Source of the DNA: Paramecium tetraurelia
Lineage: Eukaryota
DNA: 64,000 nucleotides
NCBI GenBank assembly: GCA_000165425.1
Contig: CT868003.1
Span: 124,001 to 188,000, forward strand
Reading direction: 5' to 3'
Below are positions 2,353 through 52,541 of the stretch, one piece after another (position 1 is the stretch's first letter; every line of letters begins with the position of its first letter). The position numbers and the translations under genes were made by a program. Under the pieces are notes generated by a model. The model ran no database searches. It was not told where the DNA came from and saw nothing but the letters and a program-made list of their open reading frames with translations.

Positions 2353-4917
2353 ATGGATAGATCAACTCATTCAAATGCTGCTAGACCTGCTAGTGGCAAC
2401 AAGGATAAAAATGACTTAGGGAAGAAGGAGCATGTGATAGCCTAGTTAGAACAGATTGTAATGGAACGTCTGAAAAGTACAATCAAGGATATTGAGGTAA
2501 CTGATATTTGATATTTAAATCAGGTCGAATAAGAGAGATAGATGAAGCAAAAACAAGATCAAGGAAAAAACGATTAAGTTGCTGTGGCCTTATGGTCGAA
2601 AATTAAGGGATGGGCAACTGAGTAACCATTTAGTAACTGATTTAATTTAAATTTTTATAGAAAGAATAGCAAATCAAATCACAGATAATCAAAAAATACC
2701 ACAAGAAGCCAGATAGCGATTCGCCAAACCATTTATGGATTAATAAAAATTGATTATGAATATAGAATAAGACAAGTCAAAAGTTAAAATTAAATTAAAC
2801 GAACACTACTAAGCTTTGGCCAAGTCTACACAAGACAATCTTAATTCTGTTACAGCTAGTCTAGGGAGATTGGCATAAGCAGGTTGTTGTGGAAAAGGAG
2901 AAGCCTTGAGAAGTTTTGAAACTGAATTTAGAAAAATAGAGTTGGACTTTATTTAATGGTCATCATTGCCAAATTTAGAAAACAACAATGTTGATATTTT
3001 CGTAGTTAAGACAAATCTGAATTATGAAGATTTTAGATAATTCCTCATTAAATCTTTAAATGATTACTTTCCAAGTGCAGCAGGAGAAACTAAAATTATT
3101 GAAAAACCTGTTGATAAGATTGTCTATGTGGATAAACCAGTTGATAAAATTGTCTATGTCGATAAACCAGTTGAAAAAATTATATATGTGGATAAACCTG
3201 TTGAGAAGAAGGTCATTGAATATGTTGAGAAGGTTAAAGAAGTCCCTGTTTATAGGGATCAACCTGTTTAAGACGACAGATTGAGAATTGCACACGAGAT
3301 GCTCTATGGAATTGGAAGGCCTTAAAATGTCACTGAAGCCTTAAACTTGTACTATGAATTAGCAGAAGTGAACTAAGATGTCAATGCCTTCAATATTATA
3401 GCCTAAGTATTTTCTGAAGGCAAGATCTTTCCCAAAGATTTGAACAAAGCATATACTTATTGGGAGAGGAGTGCTGCATAACAAAATGCGGAAGGTCTCT
3501 ATAGAATAGGTCGTTTGTTATTGGATTAAGTAATTGACGGATAGCTGTTGTCCCAAGGGAAACTATAGTCAAGAGATGAATAGAAATAAGAAGCTGTTGT
3601 ATTCTTTTAATAGGCCAGTGAACAAGGTCATCTGGATGCTCTAGTAGACTTGGGAGAGATCTTTGAGCATGGACTCAAAAGCGAGGATGGTGAATCATGT
3701 ATATTATTAATCTCATAAATATAGATATACAAGAACCTAATTTGGAATCAGCTGAGTTCTATTATACTTAAGGAAAGAAGGTCAGGTATCCCAGAGCCAT
3801 CAATGCGATGGGACTCTTCTATTATAGTCATACAGACTTCTAGGAGAAGGTCGTAGGAAATAACTATCGCAAAGCTCTCAAATATTTCGAAATAGCCAAA
3901 GATCTTGGTTATGCTAATTCACTCTATTGGCTGGCACAATGTTATGAATATGGATATGGAGTAGGAGTTAATTTGGAGCAGGCTAAAAGTTACTATAAGG
4001 AAGGAGCTTTGAAGGGGGATGTTGCATGTAGACTCCAATACATGCACTTTGTGATGAAAGATTGTAGCAATTCAGGAAGATAGGAGGATTATTTGTTTGC
4101 ACATCAATATTTGATTCAAATCATGATCTAAAACCCAGAAATTACAGAAGTCTATTTCTATCTAGGACATCTCTATGAGTGCGGGTTTGGAGTATAAAAG
4201 GATCCACAAAATGCTATTCATTATTATTTTAAAGGAGCAAAACTAAAGAACCCTACTTGCATGACCAAATTAGGAGATTGTTATCATAGTGGATTCGGTG
4301 TTCCTTAAAACTAGAGAGAAGCTCTTAAATTCTATAAGGAGGCTGCTGAATTGAAGGATTCAGAAGCATTAATTAATATGGGTCTAATCTATGAATAGGG
4401 ATATGAAGGAGTGAGCATAGATTTCGCCAAGGCTTTCAATGCTTATGAAGAGTCCTCCAAATTGGGTAATTCAAAAGCCGATTTTCATTTGGGTCTAATG
4501 TATGAGGCTGGGAAATATGTTAAAAAGGATGTCAATTATGCCATACAAAGATATTAGAAATCTGCTCAAATGGGATGCCAAGAGGCCAGAGACCTACTCA
4601 AAAAAAAATAGATTCCCATGTTGTATGATGATTCAGTTGGTGGAAGTACCCATCAAGAGCTCGGTATAAAATTCATATCTAGTTTAGGCATTCATGCTGC
4701 CAATAGAGATGCCATCATGCTCAATTAAGTTATTCCCTAGATTCAAAACCCTTTAGTTATTAATTAAGGTAAAAAAACTAATTAATCCATCATTGCTTAC
4801 AAATCTCAGCATCAGGAAATGGGAGAAGGAAAAATGGTCAGTATTTTAGCTCATCCAAATGCAACTCAATCTAATTACGCTTAAAGCCAATATTAGAAAC
4901 CAGGATTTTAGCATTGA
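2353..4917 (+). CDS. Sel1-like repeat protein with a KPVDKIVYVD repeat insert
   Basis: Multiple Sel1 motifs, e.g. LGHLYECGFGVQKDPQNAIHYY, LGDCYHSGFGVPQNQREALKFY, LGLMYEAGKYVKKDVNYAIQRY; several short introns; TGA 4915-4917. Confidence 0.85.
3104..3208 (+). repeat. Coding 30-nt tandem repeat, about 3.5 copies (KPV[D/E]KI[V/I]YVD)
   Basis: Units resembling AAACCTGTTGATAAGATTGTCTATGTGGAT begin at 3104, 3134, 3164 and 3194. Confidence 0.9.
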
Positions 4918-39203: not shown

Positions 39204-39531
39204 ATCATCCTGATAAAGAATAAAAACTTTAGACTCAACTTTATTTATTTTAAAGATATACATTTATAAAATTAATTTGTACATTGTTTATTTTACATCT
39301 ATATCTTTATCTGAAGACAGATTCTTAAAGAGGAAATTTACTTTTTATAGAATTTAACATAAAAATGAATGTGTCTCATAAATTGTTTTGGAATTCAAAA
39401 TATTATTTTTCCTAAAATATTTAAAAAAAAAGAAAAGTCTTTAAAAATACATATGTATTCTATAATGATATTGATCATCAATGAAATTAATAGAACAGTA
39501 AATAATTGTTAAAATCAAAAGAAAATATTAT

Positions 39532-42074
39532 TCAAATTTATTAAACTCTCTAGTGTTATTTTCTTCTTTACTGTTCATCAGGTAATGGAAGCTATGGTTT
39601 TGATTCTAAAGGCTATAAATTAACATCTAAGAATTAAGCTGGAAAGTACTTTTCTTATTTGTTGGCGGTGTAGCCTATGATAAATTGCTGTTGTTTGTAT
39701 TGCTATTAAAACCATATTGACTATTGAAATTAGGCACTGTATTTCCACGATTATCAATGGGACTTAAGATTACTTTTGAATTAGGTTTTTTCTCATTAAA
39801 CTACGGATTGGAGACTTCATTCGAGTAACGTTACTTTCCTTCTTTTTCTTCTAGCATCTAATAATTCATTTTTATCTTCTCAGCCACCAATTATGCTCTA
39901 TCTAATTGAGGTTAACTGGTTCCATTTTATTTTTGTTGAGATTCTAAATAGTGACTGAAATAGTACCTTTTCTTTGAGGCATTGGAGAAGTCATTCTCTA
40001 ATTGTATTCAGAATCATTGTAACTATTTTTATCTGTTTATCGAGAATTAATTTCAAGCATTCGATCAGCCTTTTCTTGCTCAATTAAATCGATGGCTGGA
40101 TTAAATGTGAATAATTACCTTATTTATATGGCAGATTAGGAAAATTGACCTTCTTTGCTTTAAAATTGAATGGAGGAATCTTATATTCTTAGGAATCATC
40201 ATCCCATTCGCACGCTGCTTGAAGAGATTCCAATTCAGTTTGATTGAACATCATTTTAACTATGCCAGAATACAATTTAATTTCTTTCTCCTAACTTCTA
40301 ATAGTATCCAAAAGATCTTCTTTTTCATATTCAACCTCTTGTTTCAGATCTTTTTATTCATTTTAAGCCTCTTCCAATTTCTTCCTCAAGTACTTGACAA
40401 GCTTCCTCAATTTATCAACTTCCTCTTAGACATTTTGATATTTAGTTTCAATTTACAAAAGCTCCTATTATTGTTATTCTTATTAAGTAATAAGTGCTTC
40501 ATGCTCCTTTTTCGATTGATCAATAGCTTGTCTCAATTTTTTATATTTCTTTTTCTCATCTTCAGTACCTTTTCCACCTTACACCATCATTTGTTCCTTT
40601 TCCTTCAATAAATCTTCCAATCTTTTCCTTGCTTAACGCTCCTATTCTGCTTAGTACTCTTTTTCCTTTACTTCCAACTCAAATCTCTCTTTCTCTTGCA
40701 ACAACTAATTATTTTTCTCTTTAAACTCGTGTAATTCTTTAAGTTTCTCCTCCGATGGGCCACCACCTGCAGCTGAAACTTATTGTTTACTCCTCTCTTT
40801 CAATCTATCATTCTCCTCTTTCAATCTTGCAAGTTCTTAATTATTCCCTGAATTCCCAGCAGGTTATAAAATATCAAAGGATATTGGTTAACCTGCTGCT
40901 TATTTTGACAGCATTTCTTTTAGTCTTTTGATTTCTTCAGCCTACTCTTTTAATAAAGCATCTTTTGGATCTTCATTTACTTTAGGTTGATTTTTGATCA
41001 TCTTAGCTCTTGAGGCATATCTTAAACTAGATAAAGTTTCATCAAAGTTAAAATCAGAAGGGCTGATAGCTGTGATCATTATGGTTTTTGTGTTTCCGCC
41101 CAAAGAATCCTATAGTAACCTAGTTAATTTAGAATCTCTGTAAGGAATATGCTATGTTTTGCCATCAACAAGGGCTGATATGACATTTCCCAAAGCAGAA
41201 AGTGATAAATTGATTTTAGTTGCTTCTTTTAATCTGTCACCTGTTGCTTGTGTTTTTGATTACCTTTCACTACCTGCCAAATCCACTAAGTTTAATTTAC
41301 CAGCAGTGATTCTCTCATTTCCTTTTGGATCTGTAACAGAACATTCTATGTATACAGTGAAGATGCAATGACTACGACTAGATTCCTTGTTCATGGCAGT
41401 TGCTCCAACTGATCTGTTTTATGTACCCAATTACATGTATCGATCCATTTCTTGGGTTGTCCTAACCACTGCTATGTTTAAATCCTTAATAAACACGCCT
41501 TGTTATCCCTCTTTTAATTCATATTTCTGCTTCACGTCTTTGCTTAATAAATCATGTATTTCTTCATTGTAAATTTCTATGTATGAACATCGAAGTAGAA
41601 ATTTTTTGTTTGTGTCTGAGTTATTATTGATAATGCTGATGATTTAATCAAAAGTTCTGGGGATGATTCCCTTCATCGTTTCCTAATCATGAATAATATT
41701 ATTACATTTGATGGATCTCCAATCATAGTGAAAGTTTTACCACAACCTTTATGATAATTGAATATTAATACCTGTTTAACCATATGCGAATATTGTTCCA
41801 TTGTAACCATCAGCTACACTCTCCACCAAATTGAAAGCAGTCTTCTAATAAATAGATAATTGAGGTGTTTCTGCCCCAAACACGTAATCATATGTATACG
41901 ATTTTACATCATTATCTTATGTCTAGAATACGAATGTTTAAAAAACCATACATTTCGCAATTCCACAGTGTTGGTGTCTTCATAAACTATAACACATGGC
42001 TTGCTTCCATTCTCCTTTTCTCTTTGATTGAATGGACGCATTCTTACAATAACTTTGACACATTCAGCTGGCAT
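39532..42074 (-). CDS. Kinesin-2 family motor (KIF17/OSM-3/KIF3-like)
   Basis: [65 protein letters not shown]; kinesin-2 neck [14 protein letters not shown]. Confidence 0.95.
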
Positions 42075-42921
42075 TTTTTTATATTTTATTAATCAATAAT
42101 TTAGTAACAGTTGACAATTGAAATTTATAATTATCATTTCACAGTTTCATCAATTCTACCGCATCCATCAAAATAACAATCAAGTCTCACTTTCTTTTCA
42201 CTATCACATTTCAGCAAGTCATTTTAGTCTTGTCTACACTATCTCTCTATTCAATATTTTATAACTTTATCATTTTTTGCAAATTATTGTTTCAGGCAGC
42301 ATTAATAATTATAACTATAGTAACTAAACAGTTACTCCTAATTTAAACTGTATATTTAATAGCTTCATAATATAAAGGTGTTATGATGAAAGTTTTCAAA
42401 CTATTATATTATCATATTCTCTCTAGTATTTATAACTACAGATTTTTTATTTAATAATAATTATTTCTCATACTTCTATGTTCCTTTATTTAACTCTTTT
42501 TATAATCAATTATAATATGTAATCATAATTACCATTTTATGATATCAATCTCTTAAACATTCTATTATTCAAATTTGTGAATTAAGAATTTATATTTCAA
42601 AAAACATACAAATTCTTGAATCAATTAAAATTTATTCTTAATTGTAAAACAAACACTATTAATCATATTAGATTACTAAGAATTTATTATAAGCAATGAT
42701 ATTCAGTTTTACATTATTTTATTTTCAAGTAAATGCAAGAATTCATTGAATTATTTATTTTTAATGAACCATTGAATCGTAGATTAGGTGAATCAATGCT
42801 TATATACATGAAAGTTTAAATTTAAATAATATAAACAAAAAATCACTTTCTAGTTTCAATAAGTTATCCCATAATATTAATTAATTTTAATTAAAGCTTA
42901 TTAGTATTTAAGAATTATGTT

Positions 42922-42997
42922 ATAATTATATGAGGATAAACTCGGTCTCGTTCGTCTGAGATTGATGAATCAAACGTCGCTATTCTGATCAAATTAT
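42922..42997 (+). ncRNA. Double-guide box C/D snoRNA
   Basis: Box C ATGAGGA 42930-36, D' CTGA 42956-59, C' TGATGA 42963-68, D CTGA 42985-88. Guides GGTCTCGTTCGT (antisense to SSU ACGAACGAGACC) and AACGTCGCTAT (antisense to LSU ATAGCGACGTT). Terminal stem ATAATT/AATTAT. Confidence 0.85.
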
Positions 42998-43173
42998 TAA
43001 TTTTTACTATTTATCAATTCTATCTCTGATAAATTATTTTAAGTAAACAAAGAATAAATAATTATATTTATATAATTTCAGGGTTCCCTCTTTCTATATT
43101 CAAATATTATCCATAAACATTAGAATTCGAATTATCTATAAGCATACCAAAAATCCATTCAATATATTAAATT

Positions 43174-43307
43174 AAGTAAATTACCTATACATTATGAGTA
43201 ATCATTTACTACTACTAGCATATTGCATATTAATTTACTTCACAGAAACCTCACTATTTCATATATCTTTGGAACTACTTTTTTGTGCAAATAGAAAAAA
43301 AACAATC
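43174..43307 (+). ncRNA. Candidate H/ACA-like small RNA
   Basis: Perfect 10-bp stem AAGTAAATTA/TAATTTACTT (43174-83/43231-40), H-like ACAGAA 43242-47, second stem CTATTT/AAATAG, ACA at 43302-04; no target identified. Confidence 0.3.
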
Positions 43308-43427
43308 TTCTATATCTCGGATATATATAGAATTATCATAATCTTTCAATAAACTCAAAACATCTTAAATTTACTTTAATCAAAATTTCTCTAATCAATC
43401 AATCTAATTACTTTTCCAATAAAAATA

Positions 43428-43441
43428 TAAAACCCATAAAA
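43428..43441 (+). promoter_or_regulatory. Ciliate snRNA/snoRNA-type upstream element (AAACCCATAAA)
   Basis: TAAAACCCATAAAA; related CCATAA cores at 42869 and 43111 precede the two RNA candidates. Confidence 0.35.
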
Positions 43442-43632
43442 GTATAATAATTTTTGATATAGTGTTAGAATTTATTATAAAAAATGAAATAACTTTCGAA
43501 AATATCACAAAATTACAAACTTATTCAAACTTTACCACCATTAGATTAACATTCTATAAAATGGTTGAACTCTCGAATTTACTTAAGTAAAATAATAGGT
43601 AAATACAAATAATAATAATATTTGTTATATTG

Positions 43633-44598
43633 TCATTCCTTTTTATCCTTTTTGGGGGGTTCTTCTTCTAAAGGTTTTGTAGCTCCACAACTCCAGGACC
43701 TTTTAATGGACGTCATTTGTTTAGTAGTCAGAAAAACAGATCTTCTCCTTTGAATCAAACTATTAGTTCGCTTTCTGGGGTTTAATAAATTGGAGATTAC
43801 TTATTCTCTTGTATTATAGAGGCAGAATGGATGATTTCCCATTTCTTTTCTTAATTCTTTTATAATGTGGAATCTTTTCTGGTTGCTGCAGTTTCATCTT
43901 CCTCATGTATTATTTGTTTGATTTGAACTACAAAGGAAATTACGGAATGCTTACCTACTTATTCATGTAATTCAATTTATTTTTTCTTATTGCTATTACC
44001 AGATTTTTGAGATTGCAGATCAATTTCAGGTTGACTGAGAGAATGTGTCAATTTGGATTTACGCCTTCTTTCAAGACGCATTTGGAATGCATCTGATTAA
44101 TTGGCAATTTCATTTTTGATGAGACTCTCAATTTTCATGACTTAATTTGTGTGACTGTCAACAATTCCTTTAACTTGAGCCTCAATCACAAAATGAATAG
44201 AATACCTCTTTGGATTCAGTTTGACTGTAGATGAGATCCAGTTCGATCCTTTTGGTTTATTCTTGAAATTTGGCTCTTTTGACTTGATTGTCATCTTTGG
44301 GTTTTTGGGATTCCTCGAATTTGTTGGTTGCATTAATGAAGGTGGGCTTTAACATCAAGGCATTAAGTTTTCTCTAAAAGTATAGGTGTCTTCTATCCTT
44401 GATGGATTCATAATATTCTACTCCTTCCTAGATGGGATGATGCAAGATGATTACCATATAGAGTGAGATCAAATCTTGTATGAGTTCAATTTAAACTTGA
44501 TCATTCAATTCGATTTCCATTTCAAGATTGAGAATTTGATCTGCGAAATTCTTGGGCAAGGACTTTTTAGTGAATTTCTCCTATCCGAATTTAAACAT
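43633..44598 (-). CDS. Uncharacterised coiled-coil protein
   Basis: MFKFGQEKF..LPKNFADQILNLEMEIE..LISLYM|GVEYYES..YFQRKL..QSDAFQMRLERRR...KDKKE*. Confidence 0.75.
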
Positions 44599-44629
44599 TT
44601 ATTAATAAAATTATATAAATAAATGATCA

Positions 44630-46049
44630 TCATACCTATTGACTTTGATTTAATGTATCAAAAGCATTTTGGACATCCTTCTTAATCTTTAACCTCCTAT
44701 ACCCACGTTTGCATTATTTGATGGTTTCCTAACACCCCAACAGCCACAACAATGATCCTTCGATCGCCCATAGCACAAATGAAAATGTTATTGCTACAAT
44801 ATCCAAAGCTCTTTGATTTTCAATTTGATCTGCAAATCTACCATAAACAGTCTGTATTGATCTTAAATTACTACTTCTTCATCTTTAATGCACTACATCC
44901 CCCAAAGTTAATCCAAACTATCTAGCAATTGCTTCCCATAATCTAAATTAACAAATGATAAATAGGTCATTGTGCAAGATAATGCAAGTCTCAGCAAGTA
45001 GTCCAAATACGTTAGAGTCTTGAAACTCAAAGGGCCTGCATACATACACAAATACTACCGACACATCTAAAAATATATGGGATCATGGGTATCCCATAAT
45101 TGCAGATTAATAAATAGGCAATCACCAATACGAAATTTGCATATTCAGTCTATCTATAACTTAAAAGTGTATCTTGCTGTTTCTGAGCTATCAAAAACAT
45201 TTCTCCATTACATTACTGATTCCAAAAAGGGTATTGCTTATAAAACAGAGCTATTTAGGTATTATAAATACTTTTTGTTCCATCTGAATCAATGAAGATG
45301 TCTCCAGCATTATTTATCTAAAAGTATAATTGATCTGTAATACTATTCGCCTCAACGTACTCCTTGTCCAATTCCAAACAGGACTGAGGTTATTAATCTA
45401 AATTTTCGTCATACTCTACTTCTGGCTAGGCATTAGTTTCATTTTTAGTAGCGCAAGGTATATATGAATCTATACGAATGAGACTAATAGGCATATTCTA
45501 ATTGTTGGTTTCTTTGTTGGTTGTTATCACCTAGATTTTTCCATCATTCATTTCGAGTGATATACTATTGATTGGACAAGTCAAGTCAGAATCTATACAA
45601 AAATACATCTGGTCTATTCCGCAATCCTTCATGTTCCTATCTTCACATGTCTCTGTGGAAGTGACAGTTTAAATTACGTTTTGTTTTATTTATTGTCCAC
45701 ACAAAATAAAGGCAGTTTCGTATTCGGTAGTACTCCAATAGTGAAAGGTTTCTGGAGATTGCTTGGGTACAAGTTCTCCCTTTGAATTTTAATGCTCCTT
45801 GGTCCCAGGCCAATCGAAGGAGGTGAGTAATACCCAATCTTCTGGACATTCACTTGAAGAGTAAGCTTGAATGGAGGAGAATGGATATTATTCCCAAGCC
45901 CACATTTCGTTGATAAAAGCATATTGCCTATTTTATAAGGATTTATCTCCATCCACCGAGGCTAGCCAAAAGAAATAAAAGAACAGTATTCTGCAACAAA
46001 CATTGGCCAATAGCAGAGTCACTCTTGTTGCTTTATTTGCAGTATTCAT
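44630..46049 (-). CDS. Multi-pass membrane protein with Cys-rich ectodomain
   Basis: N-terminal TM, W..YP...CPEDW..FDWPGT..W..LCG..C..CG..C..CPINSI, C-terminal TMs. Confidence 0.75.
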
Positions 46050-50118: not shown

Positions 50119-52541
50119 ATGTCCAATTATAAGGAAGAAAATATTTGCATGATTCATCATTCATAAATTGTCGCCATTAACATGGATCTCAATTCAGATT
50201 GTCAATTGCGTCGTTATTGCAGTAAATGTCTTTTGGAAAAAACTTATGACGGAACTATCTATATAAATAGTGAAGTTCAAGAACATATACAAAAAATTAA
50301 GGAGGAATATCTGGAGAAAAAGGCTTATTTTTTGAAGCATAATGTGGGCACTATTGAATCCCTTTAAAATGCAATTTAAAACATTAAAGTCACTTTCTCC
50401 TATTCTTTAGATAAAATCTTTGAAAATCTATCAACAGAGAAAATTAGATTACAAAATTAATATTTTAATATAGAAGAAACATTAAATGGAGTGGATCTAA
50501 ATAATTTCCACTATTTTAAATTATAAAGCAATGAGAACTTATTTTAGATTGAAAGTTTTAAAAGTTTAATCAAAGCTTCAATAGATTAAATTAAAAATAA
50601 TGAGAGTCTATAATTTTGTAATTAGTAAATTGAGAATCTGTAAGAAGATGATGAAGTATTAACATTCACTAGAGGGTTTAATAGTCAAGAATCCAATGTT
50701 ATTGTAAATATAATTATTATAATAAGGCTACACCCAGCTTGAAAATATTATGCTAGATGCATAAGAAATAAATAATAGCTTTTGATATGAACATTAATCG
50801 AGCCAAGGAAAATAGAATGGCTTGCATACAGTGTATTGAAGAAATTCCAAATTCGTACACTTCACTTAAAACTGTTTAGGATAAATGGAAAAAATTTGAA
50901 GAATTCAAAAAAAATAAATATTAATAGATACTGGAATAAAATAAGGAAAATAAAGATTAAATTTTAGAGTAACTTAAAATAATAAGTGAGGCTCATAATG
51001 AAATGAATCTATAAATTACTCAGTATTTAAATGATTATTGTTAATCTCTAAACTAAGAAATGCAGTAGATATTTAGTTAAATGGGTAAGAACTGGGCCAT
51101 TTGCCAACAAAAAGAAATATTTGACAACATAGAAAAATTAATTACCCCGACTTGCAACTAAGAATTCTCAAAAAACATATCGGAGCATTATGCTAATGAG
51201 GAAAAATTTGTTAATTTAAATGTGTTTGATTCTATTAAAAAGATTAGAGAAACCCTCAAAGAAAGTTTTTATTAAATTTCAAAAATGATTAAAATAAATT
51301 CTAATTTGTAAATAAAGTCAAAAGAGATATAAATTTGTGAAAAACTTTAATCTATTCGACCTCCATTCAGTATGAATTCTAAACAGGTAGAGTTAAGTCT
51401 ATCTATCGAATCTCCACGTAAATTACAAGTAACAAAAGATGTTGTATAAATGAGTTTGAAAATAAAAAAATTTAAACTTAATTTGGTTCCAAAATCAGTC
51501 TCATTATCTCTTTAAATCACATTACCTTCTAAACTTAAGATAGATAAATAATAAATATAAATATCAATGGTTTCAAAATAGTAAAAAATTAGATTTGAAA
51601 ATATAATTGAAGGATAAAAAGTAACATAAGACTAAAATTGCTATGCTCTGATTTTTGATCACACGAATAATTTATTGGTGGCAGGTTGTGGTTAAAATAT
51701 ACAAACCTTTAAATTTAATTCTGGTTCTTTCCAAAGTTAAAGTGTTTTTGGCTAGCATTACAGTAATGTTACAGCATTATGTTTTATAAAGTTTAATCAG
51801 TTTATTTCAGGTGATGCTAAAGGTTAATTGTAATTTTGGAAGGAAGAAAGTAATTCTTGGAAACAATATTAGAAATTATCCTCAGAGCACTTTGAATAAA
51901 TCAATTAAATACTTTATAGCAAGAAATTCAATTAAATAATTACTTGTAGCAATGATAAAAACATAACAGTTTTAGAAAATAAAAACCAGTAAGTTAATAT
52001 ATGGGCTTGCGCCTAAACCATATCTTCCCATTAAAGCAATGTATGTTCTATATCCTTAAACGATTCCGAAACTACATTGATCTCTTCTGGTTCTGATAAA
52101 TAATTATAAATTTATTCAAGACAAATAAACTTTAATTTGATATAAACTATAAAAGTCGAAGATATTATTTATCGCCTTTAATTTATAGAGGATTCGAGCT
52201 TTTGTGCTTAAATTTAAACTGGTATTCATCTTAATTTTTACAATTTTAATAAAAATCAGGAACAATACATTCTTAATCAAACTGCAGAAGTTTAAAATCA
52301 AAAGAGTTGTTCATAAGGATTCCCAATAGGTATTTGTAAAAAACATTCTATGATTTTATGTAAACATGGAACTTACATAAATGTATTAAAGAAAATGAAT
52401 AATTAAATATATCGTACTGAATAATCTATAAATTTTGACACCATGTATTTGTATGGGGCTCTGACTTCAGATGGCAATTATTTAGTGACATGGGATTACA
52501 GATCGAAACAATTTTAAGTAAGATAACTAATTGTAAATTGA
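50119..52541 (+). CDS. Two-zinc-module, coiled-coil, WD40 protein
   Basis: CMIHHSQIVA..RRYCSKC; TPSLKILCQMHKKQIIAFDMNINRAKENRMACIQC; WD repeats TCSNDKNI, SHQSNVCSISLN, DGNYLVTWD. Confidence 0.85.

Follow-up and report, generated by a model that had tools for sequence, protein, structure and literature searches.

A duplicated and expressed box C/D snoRNA gene of Paramecium tetraurelia with predicted guides for one SSU and one LSU rRNA site

Introduction

Does the AT-rich gap beside a kinesin gene of Paramecium tetraurelia harbor a functional box C/D snoRNA, and which rRNA nucleotides would its guides select? A first-pass annotation of the 64,000-nt stretch of DNA analyzed here (the window) had proposed a double-guide snoRNA on the basis of box motifs and antisense elements. 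Box C/D snoRNAs act within a ribonucleoprotein of fibrillarin, Nop56, Nop58 and Snu13, and the nucleotide methylated in the target is the one paired with base five ahead of box D or D' (box+5 rule). Fibrillarin matches are located on four contigs of the assembly. Our analysis documents that the locus is a real and expressed box C/D snoRNA gene of a ciliate, and an ordinary one, i.e., an additional representative of a known type that implies no new mechanism and is of modest importance. The ends of this well-supported non-coding RNA (ncRNA) gene are mapped and its promoter is likely identified; protein-centered annotation and the gathering thresholds of Rfam miss it.

A genome-wide ncRNA screen of P. 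tetraurelia has reportedly been conducted by Chen et al. 2009 (RNA 15:503). Our literature search, which covered sources other than that screen, retrieved no description of the gene or of a Paramecium rRNA methylation map; we make no claim of absence from print, since the catalogue of Chen et al. may list the gene. The literature basis comprised excerpts of PMC3273799, PMC11014333 (with its bioRxiv version), PMC6984369, PMC8797249, PMC3349704, PMC3177221, PMC5485702, PMC6461891, PMC6315972 and PMC2656528, and Makarova and Kramerov 2009 as a citation.

Structure and expression of the snoRNA

The structural composition of the locus is presented in Table 1. All four boxes were re-found in the proposed order C, D', C', D across 42930-42988, and box C deviates from the RTGATGA motif by one mismatch (G for T, position 5). 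The G+C content amounts to 38% in the Rfam match span 42925-42993 versus 15-18% in the adjoining 100-nt windows, which bears out the description of a GC-richer island in an AT-rich gap. Both guides had been said to abut their boxes; the D' guide indeed adjoins D', whereas the D guide ends one base short of D and leaves T42984 unpaired. Box C occupies nt 4-10 of the 64-nt RNA, box D ends 2 nt before its 3' end, and terminal pairing in the mature RNA is limited to 1-2 pairs at most. A/T-rich external stems fold in both genomic copies, though no better than in shuffles (z -0.84 and -0.68), and the folding energy of the snoRNA itself is ordinary (z -0.16 versus shuffles), so that folding energies are uninformative.

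Table 1. Features of the snoRNA locus, given as positions in the window
Feature	Position	Strand	Evidence
mature box C/D snoRNA, ~64 nt	42927..42990	+	reads of run X21, 5' starts, presumed adapter junction
box C, ATGAGGA	42930..42936	+	sequence; identical in C18 copy
D' guide, antisense to SSU ACGAACGAGAC(C)	42944..42955	+	D'+5 = T42951; surrogate SSU, TtnuCD30, site table
box D', CTGA	42956..42959	+	sequence
box C', TTGATGA	42962..42968	+	sequence
D guide, antisense to LSU AUAGCGACGUU	42973..42983	+	D+5 = C42980; Rfam consensus, surrogate LSUs
box D, CTGA	42985..42988	+	sequence; 2 nt of mature RNA beyond
conserved upstream block starting TTATCCCATAA (42864-42874)	42864..42908	+	kept in C18 copy; covered by contig X7
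conserved downstream A/T element ending in T5 tract (43001-43005)	42991..43005	+	kept in C18 copy

The recommended Infernal/Rfam search returned no match at gathering score in the window. The best-scoring family, SNORD59 (RF00273; E 0.11, 23.8 of the 45 bits needed for gathering), resembles the locus in the spacing of its boxes and in the sequence surrounding D'/C' and was rejected; its guide differs, and its target is presumably also distinct from those of the Paramecium snoRNA.

Expression was assessed with four of 24 sequencing runs mapped to 42700-43299, with small RNA from one library. This size-fractionated run labeled as the same species (X21; ~60% of the run, 16.45 million reads) provided 1,574 reads, which map exclusively to the + strand and all lie within 42920-43019 (5 of 30 bins). 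The 5' starts accumulate at 42927 (473 reads) and 42928 (443 reads), and the latter peak may largely represent the copy on contig C18, because this copy differs at position 42927. The unaligned 3' letters of the reads are one constant sequence, which we take to be the library adapter and which directly follows 42990 in both copies; for the call of the 3' end, its first two A's were discounted against genomic A's. The C of the window copy was found at the 3'-end marker in 919 reads, compared with 586 reads carrying the T of the C18 copy, and marker 42942 distinguishes 607 reads of the window copy from 380 of the C18 copy (A; n=987). The adapter junction and the copy-specific bases thus indicate an RNA of ~64 nt that reaches 2 nt past box D and is expressed from both copies in a ratio of ~61:39, and an origin of the reads from another locus alone is contradicted by the contribution of both loci. 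The small-RNA data hence revealed the anticipated short, discrete and strand-specific transcript, albeit with ~64 rather than ~70 nt, and the extent of 42922-42997 given previously has to be corrected accordingly (Table 1). The poly(A) run X18 has no reads at the locus, but such a library is no test of this RNA.

Duplicate copy and conserved flanks

The second copy of the gene is located at G000:C18:124943-125025 on the - strand and its flanking genes are colinear on both sides. Both genes are whole-genome-duplication (WGD) copies with 58 of 59 identical bases (98%) in the segment bounded by boxes C and D, where the lone difference is located outside the guides. The neighboring gene blocks mostly exhibit 82-87% identity between the copies (65% and 75% in two blocks), and the other flanks are unalignable. 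Boxes and guides are accordingly retained in the expressed WGD paralog, and comparison with other organisms points the same way: the contigs X4 and X7 of two further organisms cover the gene, and T42942A in X7, which is located outside the guides, is the sole listed difference within boxes C-D (depth 4-5; 4 of 14 other letters unlisted). The boxes, the expression, the duplicated copy and the conservation in two other organisms together substantiate the classification as a double-guide box C/D snoRNA.

Exact pattern searches of the assembly uncovered no further copies with either guide in the same arrangement. The other exact matches (two of four for the SSU 11-mer; L011 and L013 for the LSU 10-mer) exhibit no box context by eye, and a 16-nt LSU complement on C602 (L012) was taken as a chance match, since it is, by eye, part of an open frame of protein-like character and is not accompanied by boxes. 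None of six guide motifs was present in two Plasmodium supplementary files (8,153 characters).

The conservation extends to the flanks of the gene (Table 1). The TTATCCCATAA motif is located ~53 nt before the mature RNA and resembles the ciliate upstream sequence element AAACCCATAA, which precedes C/D snoRNAs of Tetrahymena by 53-125 bp (PMC3273799) and has also been reported for Paramecium ncRNA genes (Chen et al. 2009, cited in PMC3273799). The conserved upstream block is hence a likely promoter, and the downstream A/T element likely serves as a 3'-end or termination signal; T tracts are present downstream of monocistronic snoRNA genes in Tetrahymena (PMC3273799). The 2-nt tail after box D, the upstream element and the scarcity of terminal pairing in the mature RNA match the C/D snoRNAs of Tetrahymena.

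Guide pairing and chance controls

The rDNA of P. tetraurelia was found neither with a strict Rfam SSU search nor with an LSU DNA query of the assembly. A metagenome scan (118 loci, mostly chance matches) and a GTDB scan (32 loci) supplied surrogate rDNA only, none of it identified as Paramecium. The guides are antisense over 11-12 nt each to the Rfam consensus, the surrogate rDNA and, in case of the D' guide, the Tetrahymena 17S rRNA. The D' guide pairs over 12 of 12 nt with a surrogate eukaryotic SSU and the D guide over 11 nt with the common eukaryotic LSU sequence, and the Rfam consensus carries the 11-nt target. The surrogates L021 and L025 originate from the metagenome scan and were confirmed as eukaryotic by Rfam. 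A 13-nt LSU match to L025 is partly due to construction, because the LSU target was part of the motif used to retrieve L025, and the fair figure is 11 nt. An independent set of 32 eukaryotic LSU matches was therefore of interest, which was retrieved from GTDB with an upstream motif: counted from the first position, the pairing comprises 11 nt in 21 sequences, 10 in three, 8 in five and 0-1 in three, and a G is present at the predicted site in all 32. These 32 loci (L134-L165; ~380 estimated) represent eukaryotic LSU rDNA in bacterial and archaeal GTDB records and are likely contaminations.

Might the boxes and guides just have arisen by chance in degenerating intergenic DNA, without a functional RNA? 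Remnants of decayed genes are indeed present in the gap, single guide-plus-D matches of 11 nt readily arise by chance (mean of 1.25 per shuffle), and the ordinary folding energy fits as well. The window contains one complete arrangement of a C box and two guides, however, whereas none of 200 block-wise dinucleotide shuffles does, irrespective of a guide length of 10 or 11 nt. Together with the discrete, strand-specific 64-nt RNA, the 98% identity between the copies and the guide core and box shared with TtnuCD30 of Tetrahymena, this makes a chance origin exceedingly improbable. In the comparison with L025, eight CTGA motifs of the window are associated with perfect antisense stretches of at least 10 nt, and the two longest stretches are the two guides of the snoRNA. 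A separate pair of CTGA motifs near 51885 and 51800 on the - strand, 85 nt apart and with guides of 11 and 10 nt versus the surrogate LSU, is located inside a long open frame and probably reflects chance.

The SSU target

In the duplex with the SSU, T42951 is the D'+5 base and is located opposite the latter A of the AA pair in ACGAACGAGAC. The wording "second A" of the first-pass annotation is correct for the AA pair, but the respective base is the third A of ACGAACGAGAC. The predicted target is likely the equivalent of human 18S Am1383, a number that we adopt from the label of TtnuCD30 and the site table. According to a six-species table of 2'-O-methylated nucleotides (Nm), Am1383, the target of SNORD30, is present in human, Arabidopsis and Xenopus and lacking in yeast, fly and Dictyostelium.

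The closest counterpart is TtnuCD30 of Tetrahymena thermophila, likewise a C/D snoRNA of 64 nt whose 3' end is located 2 nt beyond box D (PMC3273799). It possesses the identical 11-nt core of the D' guide followed by CTGA, and the same target is predicted at 17S 1294-1305 (PMC3273799). The label of this site as conserved in plant and human, together with the occurrence of Am1383 in three species, supports the initial proposal of a conserved SSU site. By contrast, the D guide of TtnuCD30 differs, with a weak prediction for U6 instead of the LSU, and the gene is located in an intron of a dynein gene, whereas the Paramecium snoRNA is intergenic and equipped with its own upstream element (PMC3273799). 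With respect to orthology, both snoRNAs thus agree in guide, box and target and share neither the second guide nor the genomic context. Human SNORD30 and Arabidopsis At3gCDbox93.1 are documented as guides of 18S Am1383 and Am1330, respectively, and their SSU target probably coincides with that of the Paramecium snoRNA. SNORD30 likewise serves one site each in SSU and LSU, but its LSU site is Am3825 and not G4425; no Rfam match to SNORD30 was detected at E values up to 10, and the relationship is hence one of a common site without demonstrable sequence homology.

The LSU target

As proposed in the first-pass annotation, the D guide selects the G of LSU CAUAG*CGACG, which is faced by the D+5 base C42980. 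In the Rfam structure, this G is the 3' member of the pair that closes an apical loop adjoining the peptidyl-transferase segment, presumably the loop of helix 89. In both surrogate LSUs, it follows the middle G of GGGAUAAC at a distance of 33 nt. This middle G is marked as Gm in the Xenopus alignment of PMC6984369 and numbered 4392 in human, 2815 in yeast and 3501 in Xenopus in the six-species table. Addition of 33 to the human and Xenopus numbers identifies the target as human G4425 and Xenopus G3534 and thereby as row 183 of the table. This row lists a Gm in Xenopus only, with the guide mgxt28s-G3524, and an unmodified nucleotide in fly, human, yeast, Arabidopsis and Dictyostelium. The human/Xenopus alignment places the methyl group exactly on the G of CAUAG*CGACG (28S Gm3534), and the modification has been confirmed in X. 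laevis by RiboMethSeq and low-dNTP primer extension. Its guide is NET2, identical with mg28S-G3524, which is not expressed in human (PMC6984369).

The initial view that yeast and human lack a methyl group at this G thus agrees with the table, but the presumption of a possibly lineage-specific site has to be abandoned: given the methylation in Xenopus and its absence in the five other species, the distribution is patchy rather than lineage-specific. With the modification predicted here, a ciliate would join a patchy LSU methylation that is otherwise mapped only in Xenopus among the six species of the table, which bears on the gain and loss of rRNA modification sites. NET2 is an 87-nt vertebrate locus that has its LSU target in common with the Paramecium snoRNA (PMC6984369), and the LSU guide may have originated independently. 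The combination of an SSU target of the TtnuCD30/SNORD30 type with an LSU target of the NET2 type was not found in the tables consulted. The Tetrahymena supplement, a library stated to be non-exhaustive, contains no guide for this G (PMC3273799), and the literature search provided nothing relevant about a trypanosome equivalent. Two candidates for the same site were rejected, i.e., Drosophila Me28S-G3113, whose old position 3277 is the equivalent of yeast 2815, the site investigated here being fly 3381 and unmodified, and NET3, which guides C4004 in the frog whereas NET2 guides G3524 (PMC6984369).

We are fairly confident that both guides work and that the snoRNA directs two ribose methylations, of the SSU A via D' and of the LSU G via D. 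The independent gene would be transcribed from the upstream element, and trimming of a longer precursor would leave 3 nt ahead of box C and 2 nt behind box D. In line with established C/D biology, fibrillarin, Nop56, Nop58 and Snu13 would assemble on the C/D and C'/D' motifs, the guides would pair with the organism's own pre-rRNA, and methylation would occur at box+5, i.e., at the SSU A, the likely equivalent of Am1383, and at the LSU G, the equivalent of Xenopus Gm3534.

It is conceivable that methylation is restricted to the D' guide, with the D guide acting as a folding chaperone of the LSU loop or being idle and the G remaining unmodified or partly modified. Precedents exist, namely several conserved Xenopus antisense elements without detectable methylation, 31 of 75 earlier guide predictions in Drosophila that were unconfirmed, and the hypomethylation of Xenopus Gm3534 at late stages; the mismatch in box C points in the same direction. 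The unmodified state of the LSU site in five of six mapped species weighs against the predicted double methylation. The canonical D box, the 11-bp Watson-Crick duplex starting from position 2, the unchanged D guide in both copies and on the contigs of two other organisms, and the position of D+5 exactly on the G that is methylated in the frog nevertheless argue against an idle or chaperone-only D guide, which we regard as unlikely.

An adjacent LSU site and a second C/D family

A second duplicated pair of candidate C/D snoRNAs is located at L009:1445-1515 (G000:C69) and L010:1445-1515 (G000:C446), on the + strand of these loci and with a AACCCATAA element upstream. Their D guide covers the same LSU stretch one base on, so that D+5 faces the C after the G, a nucleotide without a row in the six-species Nm table. 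Their D' guide looks complementary to the 5' end of the SSU by eye.

These candidates raise the question if the D guide of the Paramecium snoRNA described above might be shifted by one base as well, thereby methylating the next C redundantly with the C69/C446 family. Both share the core of the antisense stretch, but the C69/C446 family is devoid of the extra T before box D and shows no obvious similarity to the snoRNA beyond the D guide and the boxes. Both copies of the snoRNA retain the extra T, and in combination with the box+5 rule it follows that the G is selected and not the next C; a shifted register is accordingly highly improbable. With the G as the selected nucleotide, an independent evolution of the frog-type Gm together with a Cm guided by the C69/C446 family would result in a back-to-back Gm-Cm pair beside the peptidyl-transferase center, a tentative idea that we fall just short of favoring.

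Genomic neighborhood

The snoRNA gap of 1.4 kb is located between the kinesin gene and a gene at ~43585-44691, both on the - strand. The kinesin motor gene (39497-42151, - strand; Pfam PF00225, E 2e-100) has an 86% identical copy on C18. Only four ATG-initiated open reading frames of at least 100 aa are present in the 64-kb window under the standard code, whereas long frames are open under the ciliate code, which, along with the short introns and the colinearity of duplicated segments, is indicative of a Paramecium-type ciliate.

The two flanking genes are ~1.4 kb apart in the window (42151-43585) but ~10.6 kb apart on C18 (G000:C18:117937-128519). Several duplicated genes have been lost on the window side, and the snoRNA and its upstream element have been kept. 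The locus thereby represents a clean case of a snoRNA that is retained as two expressed WGD copies, with neighboring protein genes lost from one of them. A decayed remnant of a calpain-family protease is found at 43075-43216 on the - strand (73% identity with gaps), whose colinear counterpart on C18 is an open Peptidase_C2 frame, and its part at 43075-43118 is also matched by a contig of another organism (B).
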